Source of the DNA: a virus
Strand: one strand, 5' to 3'
IMG/VR virus record: IMGVR_UViG_3300032326_001134
Location: 1 to 64,000 of that record
DNA: 64,000 nt
In this document: positions 13,048 to 59,677 of the stretch, one piece after another
Layout of the letters: each line of letters begins with the position of its first letter
Numbering within the stretch: the stretch's first letter is position 1
Translations under genes and position numbers: made by a program
Notes under the pieces: model-generated
Told to the model about the DNA's origin: nothing
What the model saw: the letters and a program-made list of their open reading frames with translations, nothing else
The model's database searches: none

Positions 13048-13197
13048 ATGTGTTTTGAATGCGGATGCGAATCAGTTGGAAGCACAACAGGAGTCACTCC
13101 AGTTACAGTTACTGATGTTTCAAGAGATGGGGAAGCAGGTTTAACATTAAACATGACTTCAACACCTGAGCAGACAAGACAATTTATTAATGAGTGA
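13048..13197 (+). CDS. 49-aa peptide with N-terminal MCxxCGC (not in the ORF track)
   Basis: MCFECGCESVGSTTGVTPV...; sits between two coupled ORFs. Confidence 0.6.
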   Translation: MCFECGCESVGSTTGVTPVTVTDVSRDGEAGLTLNMTSTPEQTRQFINE

Positions 13198-13408: not shown

Positions 13409-13526
13409 TTATGTGCCAAATGTCAATATGCAGTTCTTCTGAGCTGCATATTGACATTGTAAGAACAATAGATGATCAAATAGATAAAGCAGAAGAAACA
13501 GGAATTATTTAGCAGAAAGAGTTTTA

Positions 13527-14282
13527 ATGATTATTCAAGTAATTGGATTACCAGGGGCTGGCAAGTCTACATTTGCAAAAGAGTTAGCAGATAGAATTAA
13601 TGGTATACATTTAAATGCCGATGAAGTAAGAGCAGAATTAAATAGTGATCTAGGGTTTACGCCAGAAGATAGAATTGAGCAAGCACGTAGAATGGGTGCG
13701 CTATCTAGATTATTAAGTAAACAGGGATATCATGTAGTTGTAGATTTTGTTAATCCAATAAAAGAAACTAGAGATGCATTCGGCAAGCCAGATAAGGTTG
13801 TATGGATGAATCGTAAACCAGTTAGAAATTTTCCTGACACAACGGCAATGTGGGAAACGCCACATAATGTAGATTTAATGTTTGATGATTTAATTGAATA
13901 TACTGATGCTGCAAGAATAGCATGCATAGATTTTCAATTACACGACTGGAGACGTCCTACAACACTGATGCTGGGCCGATATCAGCCATGGCATGAGGGA
14001 CATCATGCGCTATATCAAGAAGCTGGGCAGAGAACAGATCAAGTGATGCTCGGAGTCAGAAATACATACAAGACAAGCGAGAAAGATCCATTAGATTTTG
14101 ATCAAGTAAAAGAGTACATATCAAAAGATCCAGTAATGGAAAAGGCAATGGTTGTTAGGATGCCTAACATTACTAATATTGTATATGGTCGTGATGTTGG
14201 ATACAAAATTGAGCAAGTATCTTTAGGATCAGACATTGAAGCAATTTCTGCAACACAAAAAAGAAAAGAAATGGGAATATGA
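13527..14282 (+). CDS. cysC: Adenylylsulfate (APS) kinase-like domain fused to HxGH nucleotidyltransferase domain
   Basis: GLPGAGKST P-loop and LNADEVR...DLGF...R as in CysC; second domain GRYQPWHEGH. Confidence 0.8.
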   Translation: MIIQVIGLPGAGKSTFAKELADRINGIHLNADEVRAELNSDLGFTPEDRIEQARRMGALSRLLSKQGYHVVVDFVNPIKETRDAFGKPDKVVWMNRKPVRNFPDTTAMWETPHNVDLMFDDLIEYTDAARIACIDFQLHDWRRPTTLMLGRYQPWHEGHHALYQEAGQRTDQVMLGVRNTYKTSEKDPLDFDQVKEYISKDPVMEKAMVVRMPNITNIVYGRDVGYKIEQVSLGSDIEAISATQKRKEMGI

Positions 14283-42870: not shown

Positions 42871-45162
42871 ATGAAAACAAAGATTCAAATAAGAAGAGAT
42901 ACGGCTGCAAACTGGGCTAGTAATAACCCAATTCTATCAGCAGGTGAATTTGGCCTAGAGTCAGACACTCAAAAAATTAAAGTTGGTAATGGCTTAGCAA
43001 ATTGGGCAGCCAGACCATATATAAACGTTTTACCATCAGACCTTGCTGAACTTTCACAAGATGCAGTAAATAATGCATTAACTGCTGGTAACGGTATAAC
43101 AAAAGAATACGATGATTTAAATAATACGATCACCATATCAGTAGACACAAGTATTATTGCAAATAAAGATTATGTAGACAATGCAATTTCTGGAGTCTTG
43201 GACGGAGCACCAGGTTTACTTGATACATTAAAAGAATTAGCAGCAGCAATTGATGATGATCCTGCATTTTTTACAAGCGTAGCAACAAATCTTTCAAATC
43301 ACGAAGCAGACACAACAAACATACACGGAATTGCAGATTCAGCAGAACTAGCAACTAAGACATTTGCAGCAGAACTTCTTACAGGATCAACAAAGTCCAA
43401 TATTACAATTACTGGTGATAAAAACGGACTCATAATTACAGCTGAAAATGGAGTAGCAGACTCAACCACATCAGATCTTGCAGAAGGAACAAATCTTTAC
43501 TTTACAGACGAAAGAGCACAAGATGCAGCAAACACTGCAATTGTTGCTGGTGAAGGATTAGATAAAACATACGATGATGAATCCAACACAATCACCCTTG
43601 ATATTGATTCAACAGTAGTAACACTAACAGACACACAAGCTTTATCAAATAAGACTTTAACTTCTCCCGTTATAAACGGAGCAACAGTTGGAGGAGATAT
43701 TATTCCTTCATCTGATGCCACATATGATTTAGGATCTCCTGAAAATAAGTTTAAAGATTTGTATCTATCTGGTGCAACACTTTATCTAGATACAGCCACA
43801 ATAGAACTACACTCTGGAAATATTCAACTTAGCCACAGTGGAAACACTACAATAATACCAATTGGAAACGGGAACCATACAGTAGCCACCCTAGATGGTC
43901 AAGAAACACTATCAAATAAAACTTTAACTAGACCAACTATTAACGGACCAGAGATTACAGAAATTGGTGGAACTCCACGTATTCATGGAATCTATCTTCC
44001 ATCACCACATTTTATTACTTTTGAGGGTGCAACAAATGATGAGTTTGAAACAGTTTTAACAACTGTAAATCCAACAGCAGATCACACAATTGCTTTACCA
44101 GATGCTTCAGGAACAATTGCTTTAACCTCAGACATTGCTGAACTTTCACAGGATGCAATAGATAATGCAATTGTAGCTGGTGTAGGACTTGACAAAGTTT
44201 ACGATGACGAAGCAAATACAATAACACTTGATATAGATTCAACAGTAACAACAAACTCTGGAACACAAACCCTTACAAATAAAACTATATCATTTGCAAA
44301 GGGTACAATTAGTTCCGCTGTGGGATATGACAATATAGAAGGATTTTTTGGACAAAACAACATAGTTGTTCTTCAAGATGCCCTTGATAAGGGTGGAAAA
44401 CTTAATATATCTAACGAGGGTGTTATTACAGTTCCATTTCCTGGAAATGGATATACTACTGGAGTAGCAACGATAGGTGGCGGAACTAGAGTTATCATAA
44501 CAGTTTCTGGAAATAATATTACAGGAACCATTAATCAGTTTAATGATTCTTTAACAGATGCAAACTTTGCTACCACAGATGGCGTAGAGTCTCTTACAAA
44601 TAAAACTTTGACTTCGCCAAAAATTAATGAAGACGCAGTACTTTCAGCAACATCTTCAGAATTAAATATTCTAGATGGGGCTACCATATCAACAGCAGAA
44701 TTAAATTATGTTGAAGGTGTAGTTTATTCAATTCAGGATCAAATAGATGAAAAGGCTCCAACAGATAGTCCAGAATTTACTGGAAACGTAGAGCTACCTT
44801 CAACAACGGTATTTGGTTCAAATACAGGAACAAGCGCAGGAAAATATTTAAGAACAGACGGAACAAACGTTTCCTGGGCATATCCAGTAATTCCTTATGG
44901 AAGCGGTGGATCAGCTAATCCAGTAAATGGACAGCTATTCTTTAATATGGATACACTATCATTACAGATATTTATGGATGGACAGTGGATTAAACTAACA
45001 TCTTATAATATTGATGGTGGAAATCCATTTACAACATCATTTGCAAATACGTTTGACGGAGGAAGTCCTTCAGTAGAACCTACATCATCATTAGATGGAG
45101 GAAATGTTGATTCATTCCCACCTGCTTCAGAAGGAACAGAAACAGATGGAGGAGAAATATGA
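42871..45162 (+). CDS. Tail fibre protein with Mtd-N-like N-terminal domain
   Basis: IQIRRDTAANW...P.L..GE.G.E.DT.K.K.G.G...W; APGLLDTLKELA; QTLTNKT repeats. Confidence 0.8.
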   Translation: MKTKIQIRRDTAANWASNNPILSAGEFGLESDTQKIKVGNGLANWAARPYINVLPSDLAELSQDAVNNALTAGNGITKEYDDLNNTITISVDTSIIANKDYVDNAISGVLDGAPGLLDTLKELAAAIDDDPAFFTSVATNLSNHEADTTNIHGIADSAELATKTFAAELLTGSTKSNITITGDKNGLIITAENGVADSTTSDLAEGTNLYFTDERAQDAANTAIVAGEGLDKTYDDESNTITLDIDSTVVTLTDTQALSNKTLTSPVINGATVGGDIIPSSDATYDLGSPENKFKDLYLSGATLYLDTATIELHSGNIQLSHSGNTTIIPIGNGNHTVATLDGQETLSNKTLTRPTINGPEITEIGGTPRIHGIYLPSPHFITFEGATNDEFETVLTTVNPTADHTIALPDASGTIALTSDIAELSQDAIDNAIVAGVGLDKVYDDEANTITLDIDSTVTTNSGTQTLTNKTISFAKGTISSAVGYDNIEGFFGQNNIVVLQDALDKGGKLNISNEGVITVPFPGNGYTTGVATIGGGTRVIITVSGNNITGTINQFNDSLTDANFATTDGVESLTNKTLTSPKINEDAVLSATSSELNILDGATISTAELNYVEGVVYSIQDQIDEKAPTDSPEFTGNVELPSTTVFGSNTGTSAGKYLRTDGTNVSWAYPVIPYGSGGSANPVNGQLFFNMDTLSLQIFMDGQWIKLTSYNIDGGNPFTTSFANTFDGGSPSVEPTSSLDGGNVDSFPPASEGTETDGGEI

Positions 45163-46226
45163 GTTCAATACAATTAAAAAGAGGAACAGCTTCTCAATGG
45201 TTTACAAAAAATCCAGTATTAAAAAATGGAGAGCTTGGAATTGAATTGGATACCAAAAGAATAAAGCTTGGCAATGGTACAACTCAATGGAGATCTTTAA
45301 GCTATATTACAGTGATACCAGCAGATTTACAAAACACTGTTGGATCTTACCTAGAAGTAGTAGAAAAAGGAAATCCTGGTGGACTAGCAACATTAAATAC
45401 AGAGGGTTACATACCAGACTCTCAAATTCCAGCATCAATTGCAAGAGATGCAGAGATTGTGACAAGCTATAATGAACTTGATGACCTGCCTACATTATTT
45501 AGCGGAAGCTATAATGATTTAACAAATAAGCCAAATTTATTTAGTGGATCATACACTAATCTAACAGATAAACCAGCGCTATTTAGTGGATCATACACCG
45601 ATCTAACAGATAAACCAACAATTCCAAGTTTAACTGGATATGCAACTGAAACATATGTTGGAACTGCAATTTCAAACCTTGTAAGCTCCGCACCAGAAAC
45701 TTTAAATACTCTTAATGAATTAGCAGAAGCATTAGGAGATGATGCTAATTATGCTACAACAATAAGCACAGCTCTTGGGCTTAAGGCCACAATTGAAAGC
45801 CCTACTTTTACTGGAACCGTGGGTGGAATAACAAAGTCAATGGTTGGTTTAGGCAATGTTGATAATACAACAGACGAAAACAAGCCAGTGTCTACACTAA
45901 CACAAACAGCACTAAACTCTAAAGCAGATAAGTTAACTTCAATTTCCGCAAAGTCTGAATCTTATACAGTGCAGACAACAGATTTAGGGAAACTAATTGA
46001 GATGTCTAATGGTGGAACAATTAGCATAGAAGACTCAGCATCTTTTCCAGAAGGATTTACAATAGATATATTGCAAACTGGAAGTTCACAGGTAACGGTT
46101 GCTGGAATTGGAACCACTATAATTAATGCAACACCAGGATTAAAGCTTAGAACACGATGGAGCAGTGCCACTTTGATCAAGAGAAGCCTAGACCTTTGGG
46201 TGCTTTTGGGAGACCTGGCAGCATAA
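45159..46226 (+). CDS. Tail fibre protein with Mtd-N-like N-terminus and conserved C-terminal domain (module 1)
   Basis: IQLKRGTASQW..; LFSGSY.DLT.KP x3; APETLNTLNELA; ends NATPGLKLRTRWSSATLIKR...W...GDL. Confidence 0.8.
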   Translation: MSSIQLKRGTASQWFTKNPVLKNGELGIELDTKRIKLGNGTTQWRSLSYITVIPADLQNTVGSYLEVVEKGNPGGLATLNTEGYIPDSQIPASIARDAEIVTSYNELDDLPTLFSGSYNDLTNKPNLFSGSYTNLTDKPALFSGSYTDLTDKPTIPSLTGYATETYVGTAISNLVSSAPETLNTLNELAEALGDDANYATTISTALGLKATIESPTFTGTVGGITKSMVGLGNVDNTTDENKPVSTLTQTALNSKADKLTSISAKSESYTVQTTDLGKLIEMSNGGTISIEDSASFPEGFTIDILQTGSSQVTVAGIGTTIINATPGLKLRTRWSSATLIKRSLDLWVLLGDLAA

Positions 46227-47032
46227 TGTTAAGAAGATTTGGTAAATCATCAAAAAGAAAAGCTAGGGTTCCAAACTTAGTTAATCTTACATTAAGTCAA
46301 GCCCAATCTTTATTGTCATCTCTTGGCATTAGCTATACAACAAGTATCACAAGCACTAGCGACCAGAGCATTAATGGTAAAGTTAGAGAGCAAAATGTTG
46401 CAGAAAATGAAACTAAATTAGTTGGAGACAATGTTGAGATAAACTATTATTCATTTAGCTTTACTCCTTTTGGATTTACCCCTTTTGGATTCACACCATT
46501 TAGCTTTACCCCTAATTTATGTTTCGTGGTGGGCACAGACATATTAATGGCTGACGGATCTACTAAAAAAATTGAAGACATTGTAATTGGAGATTCTTTA
46601 AAAAGCTTTAATATACCAAATTTAGACGACGACTACGACCCAGATTTAATGAACACAGAGAATGCGTGGATTACGCCATCTACAGATGACTTTATAATCA
46701 CGCCAACCACAGTAACATATATTGGCAGAAGGCCTGTGCTAAAAACAATTAAATTTAATAACCTGCACAGATGCACAGAAAACCATGCTATTTTTGTTAA
46801 CAGAGGTGGAGACTATCAATGGCTAAAGGCAAAAGATGTTCAGGTTGGGGACTCTTTTATTAAATTTGACAAAACTGAAGAAATGGTTTCAAATAAAGAG
46901 ACAATAGATGAGTTAACTGAGGTAGTAGCAATTGACTGTGAAATAAAAGATTTTTATTTTGCTAACGGCATATTGGTTCACAATATTACCGTTACGGCAC
47001 CACCAGGAACTACAACACAATGGGTTTCATAG
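46226..47032 (+). CDS. PASTA domain - (F[GS]FTP)4 - Hint/intein-like domain protein
   Basis: Start at TAATG overlap; VPNLVNLTLSQAQSLLSSLG...G.V..Q (PASTA-like); Hint CFVVGT...TENH...FANGILVHN at 46520-46984; 15-aa tail. Confidence 0.85.
   Translation: MLRRFGKSSKRKARVPNLVNLTLSQAQSLLSSLGISYTTSITSTSDQSINGKVREQNVAENETKLVGDNVEINYYSFSFTPFGFTPFGFTPFSFTPNLCFVVGTDILMADGSTKKIEDIVIGDSLKSFNIPNLDDDYDPDLMNTENAWITPSTDDFIITPTTVTYIGRRPVLKTIKFNNLHRCTENHAIFVNRGGDYQWLKAKDVQVGDSFIKFDKTEEMVSNKETIDELTEVVAIDCEIKDFYFANGILVHNITVTAPPGTTTQWVS
46454..46513 (+). repeat. Pentapeptide repeat FSFTP FGFTP FGFTP FSFTP
   Basis: Direct translation; synonymous codons vary between units. Confidence 0.95.
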
Positions 47033-47128
47033 GATTTACAATTTAATATAAAAGCAGTAAAATGGGGATTGCCAAATAACTGCAAAACCCATATAATAGG
47101 GTAATAGAAATATATCGGAGGTAACAGA

Positions 47129-49489
47129 ATGTCTGTTAGATTGCAATTTAGAAGAGGTACCGCATCAGAGTGGTTTGATGCTGATACTGTATTGGGAGAA
47201 GCCGAAATTGGCTATGAAATTGATACAAAAAAGATTAAAGTTGGAAATGGAATTACAGCATGGAACTCTTTAAGCTACGTAAACGTTGTTCCATCCGATT
47301 TAGTAAACACATTAAATGATTATGTATTAGTAGGAGATGTTGGAAACGCAGGCGGACCAGCAAAATTAGATTCAGATGCAAACTTATTGCTTCCAAATGG
47401 AAGAATAATTTTAGAGGGTGGCACAAACAACGATTATGAAACCACTTTACTTGTAGTAGACCCTACAGCAGATAGAACAATTACTTTTAAAGATGAATCT
47501 GGAACGGTAGCACTACTTTCAGACATTGATGCTGTTATTGGTGGAGCTCCAGGTGCCTTAGACACACTTAATGAACTTGCTGCAGCAATTAATGATGATG
47601 CATCATATGCCGCTACAATAACAAATGCTTTAGCAACAATAACTCAAGGTGGACTAGATCACGTATCTGCTGTTACAAATGTACACGGTATAGCAGACGT
47701 GTCAGAACTTGCAACAAAGACATATGCAGACAATACAGCCACTTCAATATCAAATTCAGCTGTGAGCACACACCTATCTGTAACAACAAACGTACACGGA
47801 ATTGCAGACACTCAAGATTTAATGAGAAAATCTGGATCTACAATGACTGGAATTTTAACTTTAAGTGATGATCCAACATCTAATCTACATGCAGCAACAA
47901 AGAGGTATGTAGATGATCATGTAGACACACACAACGCATCAGGAAACGATGTACATGGTATAGCAGATACAACTGCTCTTGCCACAAAAACTTACGCAGA
48001 TAATACTGCAACAACTATTGCAACAACTATTGCAACAGATGCAATTAACCTATTAACTACTTCTGATATAGAAGAGGGTTCACGTTTATACTTTACTGCA
48101 GTTAGAGCACAAGATGAAGCAAAAAATGTTATGTCAGATGGAGCCAACGAGGTTGTTACAGACAGTCTAGAGGTATCTACAAATGACTTTAACGTTGGAG
48201 AAGTTGCAAAGGGATTAAGAACAACTGATTCATACACTAATCCAATGGCAGTATTTTCAACAGCAGCATCAGATTATGCACAGGTTGCTATTAAAAATAC
48301 AACAAATGCTCCAGCTTCATCTAGCGATCTTATTATTTATGCCTCAAACGGAAATGATGCTTCTGGTTGGATAGACATGGGAATTACTGCACCAACGTTC
48401 TCAGACCCAGACTTTACAATTACTGGTGGTAACGACGGTTATATCTTTATGGAAGCCCCAGTAGGAACAACTGGAGACGGAAATCTTGTTATAGCAACTG
48501 GTGGTAATGGTACACATAACCACATTGTTTTTGCCGCAGGAGGACTACAGTCTAACAATACGCAGATGACTATTTTCCCAGATGAAAATGTTCACATTGA
48601 AATTGATACACCTTCTACATCACCAACAACAGGTGCACTAACAGTAGTCGGTGGAGTTGGTATTCAGGGAGACTTGAATATTAACGGAGATGTTAATATT
48701 GAAGGAACTATTGTTTTTGGAGGAGAAGGCACAACTGTAGAGACATCAAACCTCTCAGTAACTGATCCACTAATTTTCACAGGAGATGGCAACGCATCAG
48801 ACATTGTTGACCTAGGCTTTATTGGAGAATATACTACTGGTGGTAGCACCAAGTATTCAGGTATTGTCCGTGATGCCTCTGACGGAGTTATAAAGGCTTT
48901 TAAACACGCATCAACAAAGCCAACTTCAACCGTTAACTTTGCAGAAGCTGGAATTGAGTATTCAGACATACAAGTTGCAGCAATAAATGCATCATCATTA
49001 ACAGTAGGGGATATTTCAAATACAGAATTTGGATATCTAAATGGAGTAACATCAGCAATTCAAGATCAACTAGACGATAAAGCTCCAACTGATACTCCAA
49101 CATTTACTGGCTTAGTAACAATAGCAGCATCTGGAATAGCATTTGCAGATGGTACTCAAACAAAAGAAGGTGTTCCATCAAGAACTCCAATTATTGCAAA
49201 AACATCAAATTATACTCTTTCATCACTAGCCGAAAGAGACAGCCTAATAGAAGTTGATTCGACAGACCCAGTAACAATCATGATTCCAACAAATTCTGCA
49301 GTCGCTTTCCCAATAGGAACGACATTAGATATACTTGGAGTAAATACAGGATTAATTACAATTCAAGGAGACTCTGGAGTAGCCGTAAACGCTACACCTG
49401 GATTAAAATTGCGTACACGATGGTCTTCATGTACACTACTTAAGCGTGGAGAAAACTCTTGGGTAGTATATGGAGATTTGAAAGAATAA
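47129..49489 (+). CDS. Tail fibre protein with Mtd-N-like N-terminus and conserved C-terminal domain (module 2)
   Basis: LQFRRGTASEW..; VHGIAD repeats; ends NATPGLKLRTRWSSCTLLKR...W...GDL. Confidence 0.8.
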   Translation: MSVRLQFRRGTASEWFDADTVLGEAEIGYEIDTKKIKVGNGITAWNSLSYVNVVPSDLVNTLNDYVLVGDVGNAGGPAKLDSDANLLLPNGRIILEGGTNNDYETTLLVVDPTADRTITFKDESGTVALLSDIDAVIGGAPGALDTLNELAAAINDDASYAATITNALATITQGGLDHVSAVTNVHGIADVSELATKTYADNTATSISNSAVSTHLSVTTNVHGIADTQDLMRKSGSTMTGILTLSDDPTSNLHAATKRYVDDHVDTHNASGNDVHGIADTTALATKTYADNTATTIATTIATDAINLLTTSDIEEGSRLYFTAVRAQDEAKNVMSDGANEVVTDSLEVSTNDFNVGEVAKGLRTTDSYTNPMAVFSTAASDYAQVAIKNTTNAPASSSDLIIYASNGNDASGWIDMGITAPTFSDPDFTITGGNDGYIFMEAPVGTTGDGNLVIATGGNGTHNHIVFAAGGLQSNNTQMTIFPDENVHIEIDTPSTSPTTGALTVVGGVGIQGDLNINGDVNIEGTIVFGGEGTTVETSNLSVTDPLIFTGDGNASDIVDLGFIGEYTTGGSTKYSGIVRDASDGVIKAFKHASTKPTSTVNFAEAGIEYSDIQVAAINASSLTVGDISNTEFGYLNGVTSAIQDQLDDKAPTDTPTFTGLVTIAASGIAFADGTQTKEGVPSRTPIIAKTSNYTLSSLAERDSLIEVDSTDPVTIMIPTNSAVAFPIGTTLDILGVNTGLITIQGDSGVAVNATPGLKLRTRWSSCTLLKRGENSWVVYGDLKE

Positions 49490-49500
49490 AGGAGATATAA

Positions 49501-50787
49501 ATGACTAAAAGATCTGGTAGAAAATCGCAGGCAGCCAATGACTTTATTGAGCCATTAAAGCCTACTATTACAAACGCAGTAAATGTCACTAACAGACCAT
49601 ACAATAATGGATCGGTAGACATTAGTTTTGTCATGAGCCCAGCATCTCCAATAGCAACATCTTATTTAGTTCAAACGGTTGTCCCAGAAGGACAAACCCC
49701 GATAACTGCAACAGGAACCTCGTCACCAGTTACTATTACTGGACTACTCTCTGCAACTAATTATAGATTTACAATAACCGCATCTAATGATATTGGAGAT
49801 TCACCAGTATCTGATCAAAGCTCAGAAGTTTACGTTATAACAACTCCTAAAACTCCACAAACTCCCTCTATATCAAACAACGGAGCAGAAACAAATAACG
49901 TTACTTGGACTGCTACTCAATTTGATGGTGGCTCCGCAGTTACAAACTATGAATTATTAGATGATGAAGGAAGAACCTGGTCATATAACGCATCAACATT
50001 TTCCGCAAATATTAATGATGGAGGAAACTCCTATCAGCGAGTTAAAGTAAGAGCAAGAAACGCCAATGGCGCCTCAGAGTATTCAGAGTTTAGCAACCAG
50101 GTTCAAACAACACCATTTAGCTTTGCACCGTTTGGCTTTACCCCATTTAGCTTTACCCCGTTTGGATTTACACCGTTCGGATTTACACCGTTCGGATTTA
50201 CACCAAAATCAGTCGGAGCAGAAACAATTATAAAATCAAAAGTTCCAGAGGGATTAATATTAGCCCACAATCTAAGCGTAGGAGATGTTTTATATTCTGC
50301 TAACATTGAAGGTATAGATGTTTCAAATACAGCAATATTAGAATATTTACAAAACTGGTCCGCAAATAGCGCATCAATATCTCAAGATGTAGAAACAACT
50401 ATTGTTGCAATGGCAGCAAGAATTTCTTCTGAAGGCTCTGTTGTTATTAATGGAAACAAATACTCAAAGCAACACTTTATTTTAGTAAAAAGAAATAATG
50501 AAATTCAATTCCAGCCATCAGCAGATGTTTTAGAGACAGATTTTATATTTTCACCATCAGAATCAGATTGGGTAGCAGTTACTGATTATAAAATTACAGA
50601 TCAAAGAGAACTTTTAGTTTCAATTGACGTTGAGCCGTTTGATGTATTTTTTACAGACAATGCATTGGTTCATGACTCATATAGAGCCTCAGACGATCCA
50701 AACGTACTGACTTCTAGCGATGAAACATTTAGTGATAAATTAGATGCAATGTATCAACAATGGAGAGATTCTCAAGACCCACAATAG
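49501..50787 (+). CDS. 2x fibronectin type III - (F[GS]F[TA]P)6 - Hint/intein-like domain protein
   Basis: GL...TNYRFTITASN..G.S..S and V.ARNANG.S.YS (FN3); Hint SVGAET...L.VGD.L...SKQH...FFTDNALVHD at 50209-50676; acidic tail. Confidence 0.82.
   Translation: MTKRSGRKSQAANDFIEPLKPTITNAVNVTNRPYNNGSVDISFVMSPASPIATSYLVQTVVPEGQTPITATGTSSPVTITGLLSATNYRFTITASNDIGDSPVSDQSSEVYVITTPKTPQTPSISNNGAETNNVTWTATQFDGGSAVTNYELLDDEGRTWSYNASTFSANINDGGNSYQRVKVRARNANGASEYSEFSNQVQTTPFSFAPFGFTPFSFTPFGFTPFGFTPFGFTPKSVGAETIIKSKVPEGLILAHNLSVGDVLYSANIEGIDVSNTAILEYLQNWSANSASISQDVETTIVAMAARISSEGSVVINGNKYSKQHFILVKRNNEIQFQPSADVLETDFIFSPSESDWVAVTDYKITDQRELLVSIDVEPFDVFFTDNALVHDSYRASDDPNVLTSSDETFSDKLDAMYQQWRDSQDPQ
50116..50205 (+). 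repeat. Pentapeptide repeat FSFAP FGFTP FSFTP FGFTP FGFTP FGFTP
   Basis: Direct translation. Confidence 0.95.
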
Positions 50788-50799
50788 TCAGGATTTAAT

Positions 50800-51447
50800 T
50801 TGTTTAAGCAATTAAAAAAATTACACCTAATGGGACTTTCTGGTGTAAAATATTTTAAGGGAAAACCAATACCCAAATTTAGAAGGTACCCAGAGTATAT
50901 TAAGGGAACCTGGTCTCAATATACTGTTTTTATGGACAAGGGAAACAATTTAGCAATAGAGTGTTTATATAAAGACAATAATAACGAATCTGGAACAATA
51001 GTCATGTCTAATTTTATTAATAATGACTACCCAATCTCATGGGCAACAATTATTATAGATGGATACGATAAAGATCATTACACTGCAGTGACAGATAGAT
51101 TTTATACAAATCCACTACATAGAAGAAAAAAATACCTAGAATCTTTAGCACTTATTGGATACCCAGTATGGTGTACATTCTTTAAAATATTACCAAGACT
51201 TGGACCAGGATATACTGAAGGAACACAAAAAATGGCTTTAAGCGGACTGTCTATGATATCGTCAGCTGCTAAAAAAAGAATAATTTCAAATAGCAATAAG
51301 GCAGAAAAGGTTGTTAAGGGTGGACTCGTAGAAGGTTTAGTTCCTTCTATAAATATGCCAGAAGAACTAGCTGTGTACAAAGACCCAGTGTTCCCAGCAT
51401 TATTTCACTCTATAAGCGTTTGGGAGCCAAATGATAAAAAATATTAA
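50800..51447 (+). CDS. Hypothetical protein, weak GNAT-like motif
   Basis: FYTNPLHRRKKY resembles the GNAT motif A region. Confidence 0.5.
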   Translation: MFKQLKKLHLMGLSGVKYFKGKPIPKFRRYPEYIKGTWSQYTVFMDKGNNLAIECLYKDNNNESGTIVMSNFINNDYPISWATIIIDGYDKDHYTAVTDRFYTNPLHRRKKYLESLALIGYPVWCTFFKILPRLGPGYTEGTQKMALSGLSMISSAAKKRIISNSNKAEKVVKGGLVEGLVPSINMPEELAVYKDPVFPALFHSISVWEPNDKKY

Positions 51448-51994
51448 ATCCATAAATAACGAACTATTATTTTCAGAATATAATAAAATGGTTTCTGAAA
51501 TGTATGAGCACGTATATAAGTTTAGTCCAGGATTAAAACTTGGATTTAAGCCTAAAAAAATATCTTTGGTAGACTATAGAACATTTAACTTTTTTGGCAT
51601 GTATAGTAAAAATATACACTCTTTATATAGAGAAATAAGCGGTATGACAAAAAGCTTATGTGCAGAAAGCAATATTAACTTTGAAAGAAATTCTTTTTAT
51701 TTGCTTGGCAATATAGTTAAAAATGAAACATTGCCAATAGGAACCTATATAAACTTTGCCCCAAACTATAAAACAACTTTTATGGGCCTCTATGTAATTA
51801 GATCAAATAATGATAGAATATCTATAGATAACAAAATACTTGAACTGGAGGAAGGACAATTAATTATGCTAAACTCTGGATCAAAAATTTTATTTGAAAA
51901 TATTAGCGATAATTTAGTAATGTTATCATTTAATATCTCCCCCATAGAATATCTTTATAAACAATACTATCAAAAATGGATACCAATCTCATGA
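51431..51994 (+). CDS. Degenerate paralogue of the 54169..54813 oxygenase, lacking His ligands
   Basis: YRTFNFF...IHSLYREIS vs WREYNVF...IHKLYKNIS; both end ..WIP.. Confidence 0.6.
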   Translation: MIKNIKSINNELLFSEYNKMVSEMYEHVYKFSPGLKLGFKPKKISLVDYRTFNFFGMYSKNIHSLYREISGMTKSLCAESNINFERNSFYLLGNIVKNETLPIGTYINFAPNYKTTFMGLYVIRSNNDRISIDNKILELEEGQLIMLNSGSKILFENISDNLVMLSFNISPIEYLYKQYYQKWIPIS

Positions 51995-52707
51995 TCAATA
52001 TAGAATTTATTCCAAAATTTAGACTGTACAGTAAAGTATTTCCAGAGCCAGTTAGCGTAGCTTCCTCGATACCAGAATGGTGGAAAACACAGGAAAGTCA
52101 TTTAAATAATGATCAAAATGTTTACAGGGGAACAATGCTTCTTACCGTAAAGAAATGTCAATCAGTATTTGACTCAATGACTTTTGGATATTATTTAAAA
52201 TGCCCAACCGATATATCTATAGATGCTACTGGAGACACTTTAAGGGTTCAGCTAACTTCAGATATAATGGGAATGCAGCAACATCTTGTTTCAAACCATT
52301 TAAAAGAACAAATGGCTAAATACCCGATTCCAGAATATTTTCATCCAGAAGTTGTCAGAATACATCCAATGTGGCTGGTGCAAACAGAAGAAGGCTATAG
52401 CTCTTTATTTGTTGCACCAATGCACGGAGACGATTCTCCAATCAAAGCCGTCCCAGGAGTAATAGACACAGACGATTACCCGTCAGACGGATACTTATCT
52501 TTTTTTGTTAAAAAAGGGTTTAAGGGAATAATTAAACAGGGGACTCCAATTATTCAGGTTATTCCTTTTAAACGAGATGACTGGGAAAGCTCTATTAATA
52601 AAGAAAAAGATTCTGACTTTAAAATAAAAGAAAAAAATTTAGGAGTAAGATCAGTTTTTCAAAACGGATACAGAATGAAGTTTTGGAAAAAGAAAACGTA
52701 TAGATGA
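51991..52707 (+). CDS. DUF6065-like beta-rich protein; paralogue of 53410..54168
   Basis: IPEWWK, T.KKC....D.MT.GY, W...T.EGYS, PG.IDTD, I..GTP..Q.IPFKR..W. Confidence 0.65.
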   Translation: MINIEFIPKFRLYSKVFPEPVSVASSIPEWWKTQESHLNNDQNVYRGTMLLTVKKCQSVFDSMTFGYYLKCPTDISIDATGDTLRVQLTSDIMGMQQHLVSNHLKEQMAKYPIPEYFHPEVVRIHPMWLVQTEEGYSSLFVAPMHGDDSPIKAVPGVIDTDDYPSDGYLSFFVKKGFKGIIKQGTPIIQVIPFKRDDWESSINKEKDSDFKIKEKNLGVRSVFQNGYRMKFWKKKTYR

Positions 52708-53435
52708 CAACTAAAATAGTAAACAGGGTTCCATACGAGTCTGACTCTTGGTCATTGATGTCTAACATGAATTTTGAACAAATAGTTAATTTTTCTAATG
52801 TATTTAACAAATGGAAAGAATGGTCATACGTTAAAAATAGCCCATTGCATAAAAAATCTATACTTAAACCAGTAAACATGTATGTGTCTCATTTTTCAAA
52901 TCAGCCAGAAGTAATAAGAATTTCTGACACATCAGCGTATCTAAGATACTATAGTTATGCAGACATACTTATACAAATAGCAGACCCACCAATGGGGCAT
53001 AAGGGTATATTTAAATCTAGTCCAATAAATAGTTTATTTTATGCTACGGATAAATGCTGGTTAAGACAATTTTATCCTTCTCCAAATGAGTACAATATAA
53101 ATAAAAAAAATGCTATATCGGATAGGATGTTTAAAATATATATACCTTGGTTTTTAGACATGGATATAAAATATTCAGTTAAAACAAATAAAGAAGATTC
53201 TTCAATTGTAGCAATAGAAAAAGAAGACTATTTTACAAAAACAAATGACAATGTTATAATAAAAGAAGCAAATTTTGTTGATTTTTATTTTACAAAATCT
53301 GAAAATCATATGCAAGATAAAGTATGCGGATTAATAAAAAAAGATTCGTATTTATTTGATATAGAAATTAAAGCAGATAAAAAAACAATTAAAAAGATTA
53401 TAAGGGAATATGAAAAAAAAAGAATTAAAGGTTAA
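52704..53435 (+). CDS. Hypothetical protein
   Basis: Coupled ORF (ATGA overlap). Confidence 0.65.
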   Translation: MTTKIVNRVPYESDSWSLMSNMNFEQIVNFSNVFNKWKEWSYVKNSPLHKKSILKPVNMYVSHFSNQPEVIRISDTSAYLRYYSYADILIQIADPPMGHKGIFKSSPINSLFYATDKCWLRQFYPSPNEYNINKKNAISDRMFKIYIPWFLDMDIKYSVKTNKEDSSIVAIEKEDYFTKTNDNVIIKEANFVDFYFTKSENHMQDKVCGLIKKDSYLFDIEIKADKKTIKKIIREYEKKRIKG

Positions 53436-54168
53436 ATTTACCCCAGCCTTTATTATGAATACAGAAGGCATATCAGACTATAGTAATTTTAATGAGCCAC
53501 AAGAGTCAAAAAGATATATTCCGTCTTGGTATAAAAAGCTATCTAAATTTTACAAATCAAATAGCATCAGCAAACTACACCCAGTAAACGATAGAGGAAC
53601 GGACGGCAGCGCAGCCTCAACAAAATTATGCATGCCATTTTTTGATGCATTAACATCTGGATACATGTATACCCTAGATTACGATCTTAATGTGAGCCAG
53701 GATAAAAATGGATTTCCTACACTTTCTTGGGAGGGGTCTAATATGATAGTCGATAAAAGATTAATGATAGATGTCCCAGTACCTACACAGCATCACCCAA
53801 TGCATTATGGGTGGAAGGTTAATTGGTATTCAGAAACCCCAAAAGGATATTCTTTGTTAATAACGCATCCATTAAATAGACACGATTTACCATTTACAAC
53901 AATGAGCGGAATAATAGACGCAGACCTTTGGCACACTCCAGTATTTACATCCTTCTTCCTAAAACGCAACTTTATTGGTATAATACCTAAAGGAACTCCT
54001 ATATTTCAAATGATTCCTATTAAAAGAGAAGAGTGGTCTCTTGAAATAGATTATTCAAATGAAAATATAGAACAAAATCAGATTAAGGATGAAAAAAGAA
54101 GATCTTTAATATATGCATATTATAAAAATATAATATGGCAAAGAAAACAATATAGAGGGAAAATATAA
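53410..54168 (+). CDS. DUF6065-like beta-rich protein
   Basis: IPSWYK, TKLC.PF.DA...GY, TPKGYS.L..HP.NR, G.ID.D, IPKGTP.FQ.IP.KRE.W. Confidence 0.65.
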   Translation: MKKKELKVKFTPAFIMNTEGISDYSNFNEPQESKRYIPSWYKKLSKFYKSNSISKLHPVNDRGTDGSAASTKLCMPFFDALTSGYMYTLDYDLNVSQDKNGFPTLSWEGSNMIVDKRLMIDVPVPTQHHPMHYGWKVNWYSETPKGYSLLITHPLNRHDLPFTTMSGIIDADLWHTPVFTSFFLKRNFIGIIPKGTPIFQMIPIKREEWSLEIDYSNENIEQNQIKDEKRRSLIYAYYKNIIWQRKQYRGKI

Positions 54169-54813
54169 ATGGAAAATATGTATATGAATCAGCCAACAGG
54201 TAAAGAGCATAAATTTTTTGAGAGATACTTAGACAATGATCTCCCAGAGCTTGCAGAATTTTTGCAAAACCAATATGCCAATATGGAAACCCTTAAATTG
54301 TCTGGAATAACAAAGGTCACGCCAAGAGATCACTGGCTATCATCTGATAGCGTGTCCACAATCAAATGGAGAGAGTACAATGTTTTTCAGTTTTATCATG
54401 AGTCTATACATAAGCTGTACAAAAATATATCGGAAACTATTAAGGAAGCCTGTGAATACTATGGTATCAACTTTGAAGAACAGAAATACATGGTACAGGG
54501 TTGGTTTAATATTAATTACAATCATAGTGGTAAGCTTGATTGGCATGATCACGGTGGCCCTTATGCCCCGTATTTTCATGGTTACTATTGTGTAAACGCA
54601 GAGCCTTCAACTACTTACTATAGTGTTTTTGGTAATCAGGTAGAGAACCACAATAAAAATAATCGAATGATTATTTCAGAAATGGGTCACCCGCATGCAA
54701 TGGGTGACTGGGACTGGGAAGGTCCTAGAGTAACTATTGCTTATGACATAATGCCTTTAAAAAGCTTAATTACAAACAAGGCAGAGCCACAACATTGGAT
54801 ACCATTACTGTGA
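54169..54813 (+). CDS. Putative 2OG-Fe(II) oxygenase (HxH type)
   Basis: WFNIN...WHDH...GYY...HAM...R.TIAYD. Confidence 0.75.
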   Translation: MENMYMNQPTGKEHKFFERYLDNDLPELAEFLQNQYANMETLKLSGITKVTPRDHWLSSDSVSTIKWREYNVFQFYHESIHKLYKNISETIKEACEYYGINFEEQKYMVQGWFNINYNHSGKLDWHDHGGPYAPYFHGYYCVNAEPSTTYYSVFGNQVENHNKNNRMIISEMGHPHAMGDWDWEGPRVTIAYDIMPLKSLITNKAEPQHWIPLL

Positions 54814-55628
54814 CAAGCAATATTGGAATTTGTATATATTCATATCAAAACAAAAAGCTATTAGACTTAATAGAAGAAATTAAAGAAAAGTCTAGTAAAA
54901 AAAATATGTTGTATTTTTATGTCATAGATCAAAATAATTTGGACAGAACAAGAGGGCTCGACGATCCAGAATTTTATCATTCCATTTCATATAACTATGT
55001 AAAATGGGATTCAATTAAAAGCCCAATTGAATATAAACAACAAGCATTAAACATTTTAAATAAAACATATTATATGCAGGTTGAAGACAACTTAAGCTTA
55101 ATACAAAATTGGGACGAATATGCAATAGAATTCATATCAAACAATAAAAACTCAATTTTATCTGGAAATTCTACCGTCTCGCTAGATAATAAAAACTTGT
55201 TTCAGATAGCAGCTACAAGAACGCCATCAAAACATTTTAATGAGATAAAGTATATAGATAGAAATTTTTTATTTGGTCTTACTGAAGATTTTAAAAAGAT
55301 AGATTACCCTAAATATTTAAAGTACAACGGGGAAGAAGAATCTATTTCAATAGATATGCTAAACAGGGGAATAAAGATTTATAACTTCCCAGATGAATAT
55401 TTATCAATACATAAAGTTGATATAGAAAAAGAATATGTTCCCTTTTCTTTAAACCATAATTATAATAAATTTGTTAGCCTGTATAAGGATCAAGTTAAAA
55501 AGCATTTTGGTTTAAAAATAGAGACATTGCCGTTTGAAGATAGCGATGTCCTGTACGACCCATTGCAGTCTCAAACTGACAAAATTGGTGGGTTAAGATA
55601 TATTAATAAAGTTAAGGAGCTTAGATAA
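54795..55628 (+). CDS. GT60 / Skp1 hydroxyproline GlcNAc-transferase-like protein, divergent
   Basis: I.IYSYQ...L (cf. IASYRD), YYMQVEDN.....NWDE (cf. Y.LQIDSH.RF...WD), GEE..IS; canonical DSH not conserved. Confidence 0.6.
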   Translation: MDTITVTSNIGICIYSYQNKKLLDLIEEIKEKSSKKNMLYFYVIDQNNLDRTRGLDDPEFYHSISYNYVKWDSIKSPIEYKQQALNILNKTYYMQVEDNLSLIQNWDEYAIEFISNNKNSILSGNSTVSLDNKNLFQIAATRTPSKHFNEIKYIDRNFLFGLTEDFKKIDYPKYLKYNGEEESISIDMLNRGIKIYNFPDEYLSIHKVDIEKEYVPFSLNHNYNKFVSLYKDQVKKHFGLKIETLPFEDSDVLYDPLQSQTDKIGGLRYINKVKELR

Positions 55629-56170
55629 TGTTAATAAAAATAGTAGAAGACTTTATAACAGAAGAAGATGCAAATACTTTAATTAATGAAATGAAAAACC
55701 CGTCAGAAAGAAATGAGTATCCTGTATATTACAAAGACCGAAATGGTGGAACCGCATTCCCTTATAATAAAAAAGTTATGTCATTGTTAAAAAAATATGC
55801 AATACATTCAAATAAAATACAAAAAGAATTTTTTGGATTAGAAAAAGATGTTATTGTTACAAAAGCTTTTGGTTCGTTTTGGATGCCTGGAACAAGCGGA
55901 GCCCCACACATAGATGCAATAGAAAAAGAGCCATTTATTGAATACAGTACAGTAATCTATTTAAATGACGAATATGAGGGTGGAGAAATTTATTTTCCAA
56001 GACAATCTTTCGAATATAGTCCTAAAAAATACTCAGCAGTATTTTTTCCAGGAAATAGCATTGACTATGTCCACGGAGTAAAAGAAATAACAAGCGGTAG
56101 TAGATTTACAGCTCTCTATATGCAGTCTACAAAAAAAGACTTTATTGATCCAGATTTTGAAGGGTGCTAG
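55628..56170 (+). CDS. 2OG-Fe(II) oxygenase, prolyl-4-hydroxylase-like
   Basis: HID...YLNDEYEGGE.YF...HGV...G.R. Confidence 0.88.
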   Translation: MLIKIVEDFITEEDANTLINEMKNPSERNEYPVYYKDRNGGTAFPYNKKVMSLLKKYAIHSNKIQKEFFGLEKDVIVTKAFGSFWMPGTSGAPHIDAIEKEPFIEYSTVIYLNDEYEGGEIYFPRQSFEYSPKKYSAVFFPGNSIDYVHGVKEITSGSRFTALYMQSTKKDFIDPDFEGC

Positions 56171-56171
56171 A

Positions 56172-56825
56172 ATGAATTATAAAGAGTTATCACTAGGGGC
56201 AGTATATTATAAAAATATTATAGAAGACCCACAGAGTGTCATCAATAAAATAGAAGAACTAGAGCAAAAAAGAAACGAGTCAGAAGGATACAGGTCGGAG
56301 TTTGTAAAGCCATGGCAAGCATGGGACTATAATAACGGAAATAAAGAAAAAACTATTTTTTGCTGGCAAAAGTTTTTACCAAAGCCTGAAGACATAAAGG
56401 TGGATGACTTGTTCTATAAAGAGCAGTTTGAGATATCTTCAATTCTTTTTGATGGACTAGAAAAAGGACTTAAGCATTATTTTTCTTTATACCCATATGC
56501 AGAAAAAAATATTAAATCTAGAGAAAAAACAATGCATCTTTTAAAATATAAAGAAAGCGGTTTCCTACCAGCGCACTCAGATCATGGAATAAGTAGCAGG
56601 GTATTGTCTGCTCTTTTATATTTAAATGATGATTACGAAGGAGGGAACATAAGATTCCCTCACGCAGAAATAAACATTAAGCCAGAAGCTGGAAGTTTAT
56701 TATTTTTTCCTTCAAACTTTGTTTATGTACATGAAGTAGATGCAGTAACAAGTGGAACAAGATACTCTTTGCCTAACTGGTATCATAATAGAAAAAACGC
56801 ATATTACTCAGATGGAACAGAATAA
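56172..56825 (+). CDS. 2OG-Fe(II) oxygenase, prolyl-4-hydroxylase-like
   Basis: HSD...YLNDDYEGG...FPSN...HEV...GTRY. Confidence 0.88.
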   Translation: MNYKELSLGAVYYKNIIEDPQSVINKIEELEQKRNESEGYRSEFVKPWQAWDYNNGNKEKTIFCWQKFLPKPEDIKVDDLFYKEQFEISSILFDGLEKGLKHYFSLYPYAEKNIKSREKTMHLLKYKESGFLPAHSDHGISSRVLSALLYLNDDYEGGNIRFPHAEINIKPEAGSLLFFPSNFVYVHEVDAVTSGTRYSLPNWYHNRKNAYYSDGTE

Positions 56826-57523
56826 TGTTTATCGTTACAGGATCTAGTAGTGGAATAGGAAATGCAATTGTAAACAGGCTTTTAAAAAACGGACATTCTG
56901 TTTCAGGAATTTCAAGAAACATTCCAAAAAATGGTTCTGGATTTAAAACATATCAAGCAGACGTGTCTGATAAAAAATCAATTATAGAAATTGCAGAAGA
57001 CCTAAAATCACAAAACATAACAGTAAGTGGCTTAATAAATTGTGCTGGCTTATCACAAGATTTTTTTATTGCTGATTGGACAAAAATGCCAGCGGAAGAA
57101 ATTCAATCAATTTTTGGAACAAATATTATTGGAATAATAAACACATGCCAGTCATTTGTGCCATTAATGAATAGTAAGGTTCACACTCCAATTATAAACA
57201 TTAGCAGTCTCGCAGCTCATGCAAATTCAGATATTTCAGTCTATGCATCTAGTAAGTATGCTGTTAATGGATTTACTAGATCTTTATCTAGAGTTTTAAG
57301 AGAAACATCAATAAGGCCAAATTGTATAGCTCCAGGAATGATTAAAACAGAAATGACAAAGCACCTACCAGAAGAAATATTTAATAGAATTTTGTTTTTA
57401 TCTGGTCAAACCCTTAGCAGCAAAACATTTACGACAGAAGATATATGCGATGTGGTAGACATGTTAATTGATGAAAAATCAAACAGCTTAACTGGACAGA
57501 CATTCCACATAGGCGGATACTAA
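56825..57523 (+). CDS. Short-chain dehydrogenase/reductase (SDR)
   Basis: TGSSSGIG, NCAG, NISS, YASSK, PG. Confidence 0.92.
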   Translation: MFIVTGSSSGIGNAIVNRLLKNGHSVSGISRNIPKNGSGFKTYQADVSDKKSIIEIAEDLKSQNITVSGLINCAGLSQDFFIADWTKMPAEEIQSIFGTNIIGIINTCQSFVPLMNSKVHTPIINISSLAAHANSDISVYASSKYAVNGFTRSLSRVLRETSIRPNCIAPGMIKTEMTKHLPEEIFNRILFLSGQTLSSKTFTTEDICDVVDMLIDEKSNSLTGQTFHIGGY

Positions 57524-57547
57524 ACCGCTAAATGGTATAATTTTTAA

Positions 57548-59278: not shown

Positions 59279-59341
59279 ATATGAACATTGTCCTGACAAA
59301 ATATGGACATTAACTAAAAAGAATGGTAAAATTGATACACA

Positions 59342-59677
59342 ATGGACATTAAAAGAATAAATCAATCAGTTATTGAAGAGACCACCCTTGGTATATATGT
59401 TTGGGAAATGCCAGATGGAAGATGGATTGGCGACGACGATGGAAACTTTTTATCTATTACTGCAAAAAAGGGAAACAGATCAAAGATAGCTCTTTTGGCG
59501 GACGCAGTCAGAGCACACGGCATATACGAAGGCCAGCCAAAGTTTTTATCAGGACGTAGAAAAATTGATGACGAAGAGTTTCAGCATCAAAAGCAAAGAT
59601 TAGAATGGGGCCTAACACCAGACCCACTGGATATCGGAGTTTATAAAGACTCTTTGAAAAATGGAGGTATGCGATAA
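59342..59677 (+). CDS. Conserved phage protein upstream of portal
   Basis: G.YVW.MPDG.W..D.DGN.L; clean ORF. Confidence 0.7.
   Translation: MDIKRINQSVIEETTLGIYVWEMPDGRWIGDDDGNFLSITAKKGNRSKIALLADAVRAHGIYEGQPKFLSGRRKIDDEEFQHQKQRLEWGLTPDPLDIGVYKDSLKNGGMR

Follow-up and report, generated by a model that had tools for sequence, protein, structure and literature searches.

What happens to two phage tail-fibre-module proteins that carry the same aromatic-proline repeat in front of the same C-terminal Hint domain, and do the ten genes directly downstream serve to modify them? The locus that raises these questions lies in the first 64 kb (here, the window) of a 115,110-bp IMG/VR virus record (IMGVR_UViG_3300032326_001134) with an estimated completeness of 92%. 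One gene, at 46226, encodes a protein with a PASTA domain (PASTA protein) and another, at 49501, a protein with two FN3 domains (FN3 protein); both proteins continue into tandem copies of a Phe-x-Phe-x-Pro (FxFxP) pentapeptide, followed by the Hint domain. Here, we propose from sequence comparisons that the Hint domain probably removes itself, leaving the repeat as the C-terminus, and, with less confidence, that neighbouring enzymes decorate the stalk thus exposed.

Two proteins with a shared repeat and Hint domain

The initial annotation described the two proteins as having unrelated N-termini and a common repeat-plus-Hint part. Open reading frames (ORFs) and translations agree with this description, and the similarity between the two proteins (32% identity, E 1e-18) is limited to the repeat and the Hint domain. 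The repeat indeed ends one or two residues before the Hint domain, as had been claimed: Asn-Leu precedes Cys99 in the PASTA protein, and a single Lys precedes Ser237 in the FN3 protein (Table 1). By this first residue, Hint domains are here called Cys-type or Ser-type. Translation of the PASTA gene probably begins with the ATG at 46226, in overlap with the stop codon of the gene upstream; the orthologues in the complete sister genomes G002 and G003 start at the equivalent Met.

The FxFxP repeat is conserved as a peptide and not as DNA, because codons differ from unit to unit. When two FxFxP units were searched as a DNA pattern across the whole 115-kb genome, all eight forward matches fell within these two genes, and the reversed control gave one match. 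This strict pattern misses Tyr-containing and FGA repeats, and its negatives in G001, G004, and G005, which are also incomplete records, are uninformative.

The tail behind the Ser-type Hint domain (50677-50784 in the window; orthologues L001-L036) includes a conserved stretch, acidic and aromatic, with a helical appearance by eye. In the window's clade, the His-Asp-Ser junction in front of this tail does not vary, and neither Cys-type nor Hint-less forms have the tail.

Predicted self-removal of the Hint domain

A profile built from 23 of the C-terminal domains matched the gp41-1 intein (7.5e-8), the BIL domain 2lwy (1.2e-7), and the Pho RadA intein (1e-6) in the PDB, and the intein and BIL profile alignments span both the N-terminal (A) and the C-terminal (G) block. 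Judged by these profile matches, the domains belong to the HINT superfamily of inteins, BIL domains, and Hedgehog proteins; single-sequence Pfam Hint matches fall under the gathering scores. Hint domains form a (thio)ester at their N-terminal junction, and in Hedgehog proteins this ester is resolved by cholesterol.

Three features favour self-removal, namely the invariance of the first Hint residue, the way in which Cys-type proteins end, and the existence of orthologues that end at the would-be cleavage point. All 58 distinct aligned domains begin with Cys or Ser, although they are otherwise only 16-27% identical, and both Hint domains in the window also possess the block B motif [ST]xxH. Cys-type relatives terminate with His-Asn-Lys-stop, and therefore only the N-terminal junction has anything to release. 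Nine of the 72 distinct orthologues have no Hint domain and stop 1-7 residues past the repeat, often with Arg or Lys (...FTPR, ...FVPR, ...FSPPFR). These Hint-less forms are not frameshifts, as the next gene begins about 40-50 nt later, and they are without any C-extein. The predicted cleavage product of the FN3 protein would end in ...FGFTPK and thus in the same manner as the Hint-less orthologues.

Three features complicate this reading. Many Cys-type relatives have Gln instead of the block-B His, Ser-type domains, including that of the FN3 protein, have Asp where the terminal Asn is expected, and a conserved tail of 36 residues follows the Ser-type Hint domain in the window's clade. The initial proposal that the Hint domain exposes or activates the repeat as a new C-terminus is backed by the invariant Cys/Ser and by the Hint-less orthologues ending at the repeat, but qualified by these departures from canonical residues.

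Some relatives also encode a free-standing protein of about 200 residues (L047:680-1291, + strand; kin in L086, L109, L115, L059, and L066) whose N-terminus is similar to Hint block A but starts with Met-Gly-Phe and thus has no nucleophile. Its gene is located between a Cys-type repeat-Hint gene and a gene for an oxygenase of the prolyl 4-hydroxylase (P4H) type.

The Hint domain might be catalytically dead or slow, in which case it would stay on the stalk end and function in docking or as a structural element. Replacement of the block-B His by Gln and of the terminal Asn by Asp would fit this explanation, as would the nucleophile-less Hint-like protein beside some repeat genes and the annotation of an Erwinia jumbo-phage protein with a C-terminal Hint domain as a virion structural protein. 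We consider it unlikely, given that Cys/Ser is strictly kept at position 1 across such divergent domains and that Hint-less orthologues end where cleavage would occur.

Alternatively, the (thio)ester could be resolved in a Hedgehog-like manner by a nucleophile other than water, for instance a virion-protein lysine, a precursor of the wall, or a lipid. This would covalently anchor the stalk by its C-terminus, and the 36-residue tail would then recruit the acceptor, in the way that Hedgehog proteins use their sterol-recognition region. The succession of binding module, proline-rich linker, and reactive end is a tether-like order with a C-terminal anchor, and the conserved tail behind the Ser-type Hint domains of the window's clade is consistent with such a role. 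However, Cys-type Hint domains are tail-less, no acceptor was identified, and the Hint-less orthologues have a plain C-terminus and the same neighbours, which argues that a covalent adduct is not essential. We consider transfer of this kind improbable.

Protein splicing in Ser-type proteins, by which Ser237 to His-Asp392 would be excised and the repeat joined to the tail from Ser393 onwards, is more improbable still. The invariant His-Asp-Ser and the conservation of the tail in the window's clade would fit splicing, but the tail is also missing from Hint-less orthologues and thus travels with the Hint domain, the terminal residue is Asp and not Asn, and other Ser-type proteins have variable +1 residues and tails of 3-6 residues. 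Neither window protein ends its Hint domain in the manner of a splicing-competent class 1 intein: His-Asn is followed by Ile in the PASTA protein and His-Asp by Ser in the FN3 protein.

A large protein family paired with tail-fibre genes

If the Hint domain removes itself, the FxFxP repeat would form the end of the mature protein in a large family. A search of IMG/VR with the FN3 protein recovered 77 loci at 30-86% identity, and the repeat-plus-Hint part, compared with 5.8 billion proteins, retrieved at least 468 with FN3 or PASTA N-termini, all of them named 'hypothetical'. FxFxP is retained throughout these relatives, most commonly as FGFTP, in 3 to about 24 copies, and two or three proteins of differing N-termini per phage often bear the repeat. 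In relatives it grades into, or gives way to, PV, PT, or poly-Pro linkers. Because it interchanges with such ordinary proline-rich linkers, we infer that the repeat is an extended low-complexity stalk, albeit an unusually aromatic one. One orthologue at the PASTA position, G003:C1:103045-103938 (- strand; L254), keeps the N-terminus, is without a Hint domain, and has PTPVPTP linkers between Cys-rich modules.

Three FGFTP units searched as DNA in 185,579 species genomes gave one match, on a 7.6-kb contig of a metagenome-assembled genome (MAG) with the same phage module. The FGFTP repeat thus does not look like a motif of host proteins. This contig (L086; CAZCOL010000080.1), with its fibre, repeat-Hint, and 2-oxoglutarate (2OG) oxygenase module, was binned in a MAG of Ferruginibacter (Bacteroidota); it probably represents phage DNA that was binned wrongly and gives no clue to the host. 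Among cultured phages, the region had no megablast match, and protein matches were found at the level of the Hint domain only, in Erwinia, Dickeya, and Yersinia jumbo phages; by these searches, none possesses the repeat-Hint architecture. Our literature search found no description of Hint-capped repeat proteins in phage fibre modules or of the FGFTP repeat. The repeat-Hint proteins are a large, apparently undescribed family built from known kinds of parts.

In the window, one repeat-Hint gene follows the second of three fibre genes and the other follows the third, and this order of fibre gene and repeat gene is kept in more than 70 loci. The C-terminal domain (about 150 residues, roughly 202-355) of the second fibre protein is 37% identical to residues 644-784 of the third. 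Conservation of the fibre/accessory gene pairing across the lineage suggests that the repeat-Hint proteins dock as accessory proteins on this shared C-terminal fibre domain.

Ten genes downstream of the repeat-Hint genes

The ORF list confirms that ten tightly coupled genes (e1 to e10) are located downstream of the FN3 gene and in front of the LamG and portal genes, as initially annotated; from 50800 to 57523, all ten run on the + strand, each overlapping or abutting the next. The original family assignments hold for two P4H-like 2OG oxygenases, a His-x-His oxygenase and its ligand-less paralogue, a GT60-like transferase, and a short-chain dehydrogenase/reductase (SDR). They needed revision for the gene listed as unknown, which appears to be a third DUF6065 paralogue, and the GNAT-like assignment of e1 stays weak.

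The two P4H-like enzymes may act on peptidyl-proline, as their nearest solved relatives point that way. These are Bacillus anthracis P4H and human P3H1 for e8, which has no Pfam match and finds solved P4H sequences at 3e-4, and P3H1, B. anthracis P4H, and Pseudomonas PPHD for e9. The known bacterial P4H relative 4iw3 hydroxylates EF-Tu.

The predicted structure of e6 points to a new family with the 2OG/Fe(II) oxygenase fold. Foldseek returned 97 PDB matches at E<=0.001, and those listed are all 2OG oxygenases, with 3bvc/2rg4 (2OG-type structures from structural genomics), TlxI, FtmOx1, and prolyl hydroxylases (PHD, PPHD) at the top. His126, His128, His176, and Arg187 are at least 90% conserved and presumably include the metal-binding residues. 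All 1131 relatives of e6 are called 'hypothetical', and the contigs among the 120 listed measure up to about 120 kb. Sequence searches found no PDB match for e6, and Pfam matches of family members were noise only. Profile searches of the DUF6065 and e7 families against PDB sequences likewise yielded nothing useful.

The e7 family matches PF11397/GT60 in 10 of 20 aligned members (best 1.5e-40), and the window copy would be a diverged member of it. Three Asp residues (D45, D72, and D107) are near-invariant in the family and may contribute to a metal-binding DxD-type motif.

The DUF6065-type proteins match phrog_7084 over their full length, and Pfam DUF6065 (PF19541) scores 18.4 bits for e3 and 14.7 bits for e5, against a cut-off of 26.6. 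The top 22 VIA-align matches of the structural model are all dUTPases or dCTP deaminases (Z 9.6-5.9; next match 4.0), and Foldseek gave 3e-4, so that two independent aligners assign the model to the dUTPase/dCTP deaminase fold. A function of these proteins as oxygenases was ruled out by this fold. Segments G-[VI]-I-D-x-D and G-T-P-I-x-Q of e3 and e5 resemble dUTPase motifs III and IV by eye. One possibility is that the DUF6065-type proteins bind a uridine nucleotide, the donor class of GT60 enzymes. We found no paper on DUF6065.

For e1, the GNAT assignment comes from an Atlas features search, in which GNAT clusters took rank 8 (136 shared features) and rank 27 (134 shared features) at 0.90-0.91; this serves as a lead only. 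The protein matched neither Pfam nor PHROG families and was unrelated to the e6 and DUF6065 profiles.

Association of the enzymes with the repeat proteins

Genes of the enzyme-cluster families directly follow 77 of 114 distinct repeat genes: e1 in 34 cases, e6 in 21, e3 in 15, e4 in 4, and P4H-type genes in 3. FN3-type repeat genes are followed by e1, e3, or e6, with e1 as the commonest gene straight after them and e6 as the most conserved partner of repeat genes. At the second fibre position, PASTA-type genes are followed by a PF13640 oxygenase (30-31 bits), either directly or after one small gene. Cluster size varies from 1 to 12 genes among relatives, and the minimal set of neighbours in distant relatives consists of one to three e6 paralogues or one DUF6065 gene. 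All five genomes that are at least 90% complete and carry e6 also carry repeat proteins. As previously proposed, the neighbours appear to include polypeptide-directed families, with peptidyl-prolyl hydroxylases as nearest solved relatives on the one hand and GT60 on the other.

In locus L231, a Sulfotransfer_2 protein (9206-9931, + strand; 32 bits) is encoded directly after a repeat-Hint gene and is followed by an e6 oxygenase. This sulfotransferase and the lineage's conserved APS-kinase-like gene suggest that sulfation may be part of the repertoire.

The main alternative, which we regard as somewhat unlikely, is that the ten genes represent an independent accessory island at the junction of fibre and head modules, with other targets (host proteins, other virion proteins, or small molecules), and that the repeat-Hint proteins mature without it. 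Many observations weigh in this direction and against a link to the repeats. Of 80 loci found via e6, 47 have no repeat ORF within 10 kb. In G002 and G003, the homologues of e4-e9 (52704-56825) form a block at a distance of 45-60 kb from the fibre module, among homologues of miscellaneous accessory genes from 1-14 kb of the window (CHAP, subtilase, APS-kinase-like, and another 2OG oxygenase). Further 2OG oxygenases occur elsewhere in this lineage, including the one at 3235-3936 of the window, the island content is highly variable, and the fibre/head junction is a common site for accessory genes. The P4H relative 4iw3, with EF-Tu as its substrate, has a host-type target. The FN3-type protein of G003 has FSFAP followed by (FGA)6 and almost no Thr-Pro, yet the enzymes are kept (the protein at the PASTA position of G003 is rich in PT linkers). 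The DUF6065 proteins, which are the closest neighbours in distant relatives, have a fold without known role in protein modification, and the GT60-like copy of the window scores under the Pfam cut-off. Finally, all loci derive from one phage lineage, and co-occurrence at the genome level is therefore weak and not independent evidence.

On the other side, an independent island does not readily account for the direct adjacency of these families to 77 of 114 repeat genes at two fibre positions or for the one DUF6065 gene that alone remains directly after the FN3-repeat-Hint gene in G002 and G003. Moreover, the repeats and PT linkers are Pro/Thr-rich polypeptides, the kind of substrate on which GT60 and P4H families act. 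The description of the genes as a 'dedicated' tailoring cluster is weakened by the distant block in G002 and G003, whereas the adjacency itself remains. Likewise, the predicted co-occurrence of repeat-Hint genes and enzymes is seen from the side of the repeat genes but fails at more than half of the e6 loci. On balance, action of the cluster enzymes on these stalks is a tentative proposal, to which we give somewhat less than an even chance.

The additional idea that the repeats are core peptides of a precursor resembling ribosomally synthesized and post-translationally modified peptides, released and tailored by the cluster, draws on the short repeated units beside tailoring-type enzymes but is scarcely tenable, because the 75-205 N-terminal residues comprise a conserved peptide and folded PASTA or FN3 modules, likewise conserved, in place of any apparent leader, the repeat genes always stand behind fibre genes in the structural module, Pfam and PHROG scans of the ten genes revealed no protease, recognition-element, or export gene, and the repeat is swappable with ordinary PT/PV linkers in relatives.

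Genomic context

The window has a GC content of about 35%. A WhiB-family gene, the usual marker of actinobacteriophages, is located at 4779-4952 (+ strand; 42 bits, above the cut-off), and the HK97-type portal protein (59678-61261) is 57% identical to portals of Streptomyces phages. WhiB and the PASTA domain in a structural protein favour an actinobacterial host; together with the portal and the GC content, they suggest that the host is Gram-positive and probably a freshwater actinobacterium.

From 42871 to 61261, every gene is on the + strand, in the order of three Mtd_N fibre genes interspersed with the two repeat-Hint genes, the ten-gene block, a LamG protein, a small protein, and the portal. 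A promoter scan performed no better than on shuffled sequence, and no convincing intergenic terminator was found on the + strand. In the accessory region at 1623-14282 (+ strand), several unnamed paralogues accompany the named genes listed in Table 1.

Table 1. Coordinates of features in the window and the evidence for their assignment
Feature	Position	Strand	Evidence and remarks
CHAP lysin	1623-2207	+	Accessory region
PF13640 2OG oxygenase, further copy	3235-3936	+	Accessory region
Subtilase	7126-8277	+	Accessory region
APS-kinase plus cytidylyltransferase-like protein	13527-14282	+	Accessory region
Fibre protein, Mtd_N N-terminus	42871-45162	+	Pfam
Fibre protein, Mtd_N N-terminus	45159-46226	+	Pfam (54 bits); upstream of PASTA-repeat-Hint gene
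PASTA, (F[GS]FTP)4, Hint protein, 268 residues	46226-47032	+	Translation; PASTA 34 bits (Pfam)
Repeat, FSFTP-FGFTP-FGFTP-FSFTP, residues 77-96	46454-46513	+	Translation
Hint domain, Cys99 to His-Asn253, block B T-E-N-H	46520-46984	+	Alignment, intein/BIL profile matches, sub-threshold Pfam
Tail of 15 residues after Cys99 Hint domain, first residue Ile	46985-47029	+	Translation
Fibre protein, Mtd_N N-terminus, 786 residues	47129-49489	+	Pfam; upstream of FN3-repeat-Hint gene
Basic conserved N-terminal peptide, two FN3, (FxFxP)6, Hint, 36-residue tail; 428 residues	49501-50787	+	Two fn3 stretches (Pfam)
Repeat, six FxFxP units, residues 206-235, then Lys236	50116-50205	+	Translation
Hint domain, Ser237 to His-Asp392, block B S-K-Q-H	50209-50676	+	Alignment, profile
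Conserved tail Ser393-Gln428, 36 residues, after Ser-type Hint domain	50677-50784	+	Translation
e1, weakly GNAT-like, 215 residues	50800-51447	+	Atlas features search
e2, ligand-less paralogue of the e6 family	51431-51994	+	hhalign 97.9%, E 4.8e-13; His-x-His segment replaced
e3, DUF6065-type, predicted dUTPase-like fold	51976-52707	+	phrog_7084 3e-43; AlphaFold2 (AF2) pLDDT 90.7
e4, probable distant third DUF6065-type paralogue	52704-53435	+	hhalign against DUF6065 alignment, E 2e-4, 129 colinear columns, probability 46%
e5, DUF6065-type	53410-54168	+	phrog_7084 6e-38
e6, predicted new 2OG/Fe(II)-oxygenase-fold family	54169-54813	+	AF2 pLDDT 91.5, Foldseek
e7, GT60-family (PF11397) glycosyltransferase-like, diverged copy	54795-55628	+	Pfam 18.3 bits, cut-off 21
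e8, peptidyl-prolyl-hydroxylase-like 2OG oxygenase	55628-56170	+	PHROG 2OG oxygenase 1.5e-15; H-I-D ... H ... R
e9, peptidyl-prolyl-hydroxylase-like 2OG oxygenase	56145-56825	+	PF13640 61.5 bits, cut-off 27; H-S-D ... H ... R
e10, classical short-chain dehydrogenase/reductase	56825-57523	+	adh_short 131 bits; only in closer relatives

Comparison with known systems

Phage tail spikes and fibres are known to carry self-cleaving C-terminal intramolecular chaperone domains of the Peptidase_S74 type, which use a Ser-Lys dyad and trimerise a beta-helix. The repeat-Hint proteins are similar in the autocatalytic removal of a C-terminal domain from a fibre protein, here predicted, and in having orthologues with and without this domain. 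However, the folds are unrelated, removal would proceed by a HINT acyl shift, the segment in front of the domain is of low complexity, and the repeat-Hint proteins gave no Pfam match to Peptidase_S74.

With Hedgehog/Hog proteins and BIL domains, the new family has in common a C-terminal HINT domain behind varied N-terminal domains, Cys or Ser as its first residue, the [ST]xxH motif, and an expected N-terminal cleavage without splicing. It differs in that its members are phage fibre-module proteins, that the Hint domain always comes right after an aromatic-proline pentapeptide repeat, and that in many members the block-B His is exchanged for Gln or the terminal Asn for Asp. Unlike in Hedgehog proteins, there is no sterol-recognition region, and Cys-type proteins end one residue past His-Asn. 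In contrast to pre-toxin HINT domains (PMC3482391), no toxin or other cargo is encoded downstream of the Hint domain.

A parallel in a cultured phage is gp110 of the Erwinia jumbo phage pEa_SNUABM_2 (phrog_38766; L261:1990-3432, + strand), a repeat-bearing fibre-like protein with a C-terminal Hint domain (Cys1, T-H-E-H, V-H-N-T) that is encoded beside tail-fibre genes and annotated as 'virion structural protein'. Where the proteins described here have FxFxP directly in front of the Hint domain, gp110 has collagen-like G-X-Y repeats and a middle domain, and identity over the Hint domain is only 28%. As gp110 bears such a domain, C-terminal Hint domains on phage fibre-like proteins are, by sequence, not confined to the lineage studied here.

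In Dictyostelium and Toxoplasma, Skp1 undergoes prolyl hydroxylation by PhyA/P4H1, after which Gnt1, a GT60 enzyme, attaches N-acetylglucosamine (GlcNAc) to the hydroxyproline (Hyp). The present cluster likewise encodes P4H-like 2OG oxygenases together with a transferase of the PF11397/GT60 family, and one of the structures matched by e6 is the Dictyostelium PHD. Unlike the Skp1 pathway, the setting is viral and prokaryotic, the putative substrate is a tandem repeat and not a single Pro, additional families (e6, DUF6065, SDR) are present, and the transferase of the window is too diverged to pass the Pfam threshold.

Viruses that modify their own repeat proteins have precedents in Mimivirus, whose collagen is accompanied by its own lysyl hydroxylase and glycosyltransferases (PMC9546862), and in PBCV-1, for which a prolyl 4-hydroxylase is mentioned in PMC3634087. 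These viruses and the phage described here each combine a repeat protein with 2OG hydroxylase or glycosyltransferase genes suited to modify the repeat, but the former are giant viruses of eukaryotes with collagen or PAPK repeats and the latter is a tailed phage with FxFxP and a Hint cap. In mycobacteriophages, modification is said to affect capsid and tail-tube subunits and to involve other transferase families, with neither hydroxylases nor a Hint domain. The use of their own glycosyltransferases to decorate virion proteins is noted in the passage of PMC12582341 that cites Freeman et al. 2023.

Proposed maturation and its implications

We tentatively favour, at little less than an even chance, a joint reading in which these proteins are Hint-capped accessory stalks of the fibre module that mature by loss of the Hint domain and are decorated by neighbouring protein-modifying enzymes. 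Each protein, encoded directly after a fibre gene, consists of four parts in order: a short conserved N-terminal peptide, a module for binding to wall or glycan, either PASTA or two FN3 domains, an (FxFxP)n stalk, and the HINT domain. An N-to-S or N-to-O acyl shift at Cys99 or Ser237 would produce a (thio)ester that is hydrolysed, the Hint domain would be discarded, and the mature proteins would end one or two residues after the repeat (...FTPNL or ...FTPK). In this way, a sticky hydrophobic tail would be capped by the Hint domain until the latter is removed. Less certain is the part of the neighbouring genes, which would contribute accessory enzymes for protein modification in varying combinations: two peptidyl-prolyl-hydroxylase-like oxygenases, one to three 2OG oxygenases of the new family, and a relative of GT60 polypeptide GlcNAc-transferases, completed by the DUF6065 proteins with their nucleotide-binding fold, the SDR, and, in relatives, a sulfotransferase. 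The enzymes would hydroxylate and glycosylate the Pro/Thr-rich stalks of the repeat-Hint proteins and of similar proteins associated with the fibre, to give a decorated virion adhesin.

A bolder but improbable extension would combine both processes, with Hedgehog-style Hint coupling of a hydroxylated and glycosylated, extensin-like stalk to an acceptor in the virion or wall, resulting in a covalently tethered, decorated adhesin. This extension, including a phage-encoded Hyp/Thr glycosylation pathway in which e6-family and dUTPase-fold proteins are catalytic in roles not yet defined, is similarly doubtful.

If the predicted cleavage is true, HINT domains would join the short list of self-removing maturation modules in the receptor-binding machinery of phages, and a family of at least 468 proteins, now all 'hypothetical', would be defined. 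The linked enzymes, if they act as proposed, would provide the first hint of a prolyl-hydroxylase and GT60 pathway in a tailed phage, a pairing that to our knowledge has until now been known from eukaryotic Skp1 and giant-virus collagen. Glycosylation of actinobacteriophage virions would then extend to fibre-associated adhesins. The locus also offers testable handles on three uncharacterised families, i.e., the e6 oxygenases with 1131 members, the DUF6065 proteins with their dUTPase fold, and e1. In abundant freshwater actinophages, differences in repeat copy number (3 to about 24) could serve to tune reach or host range.

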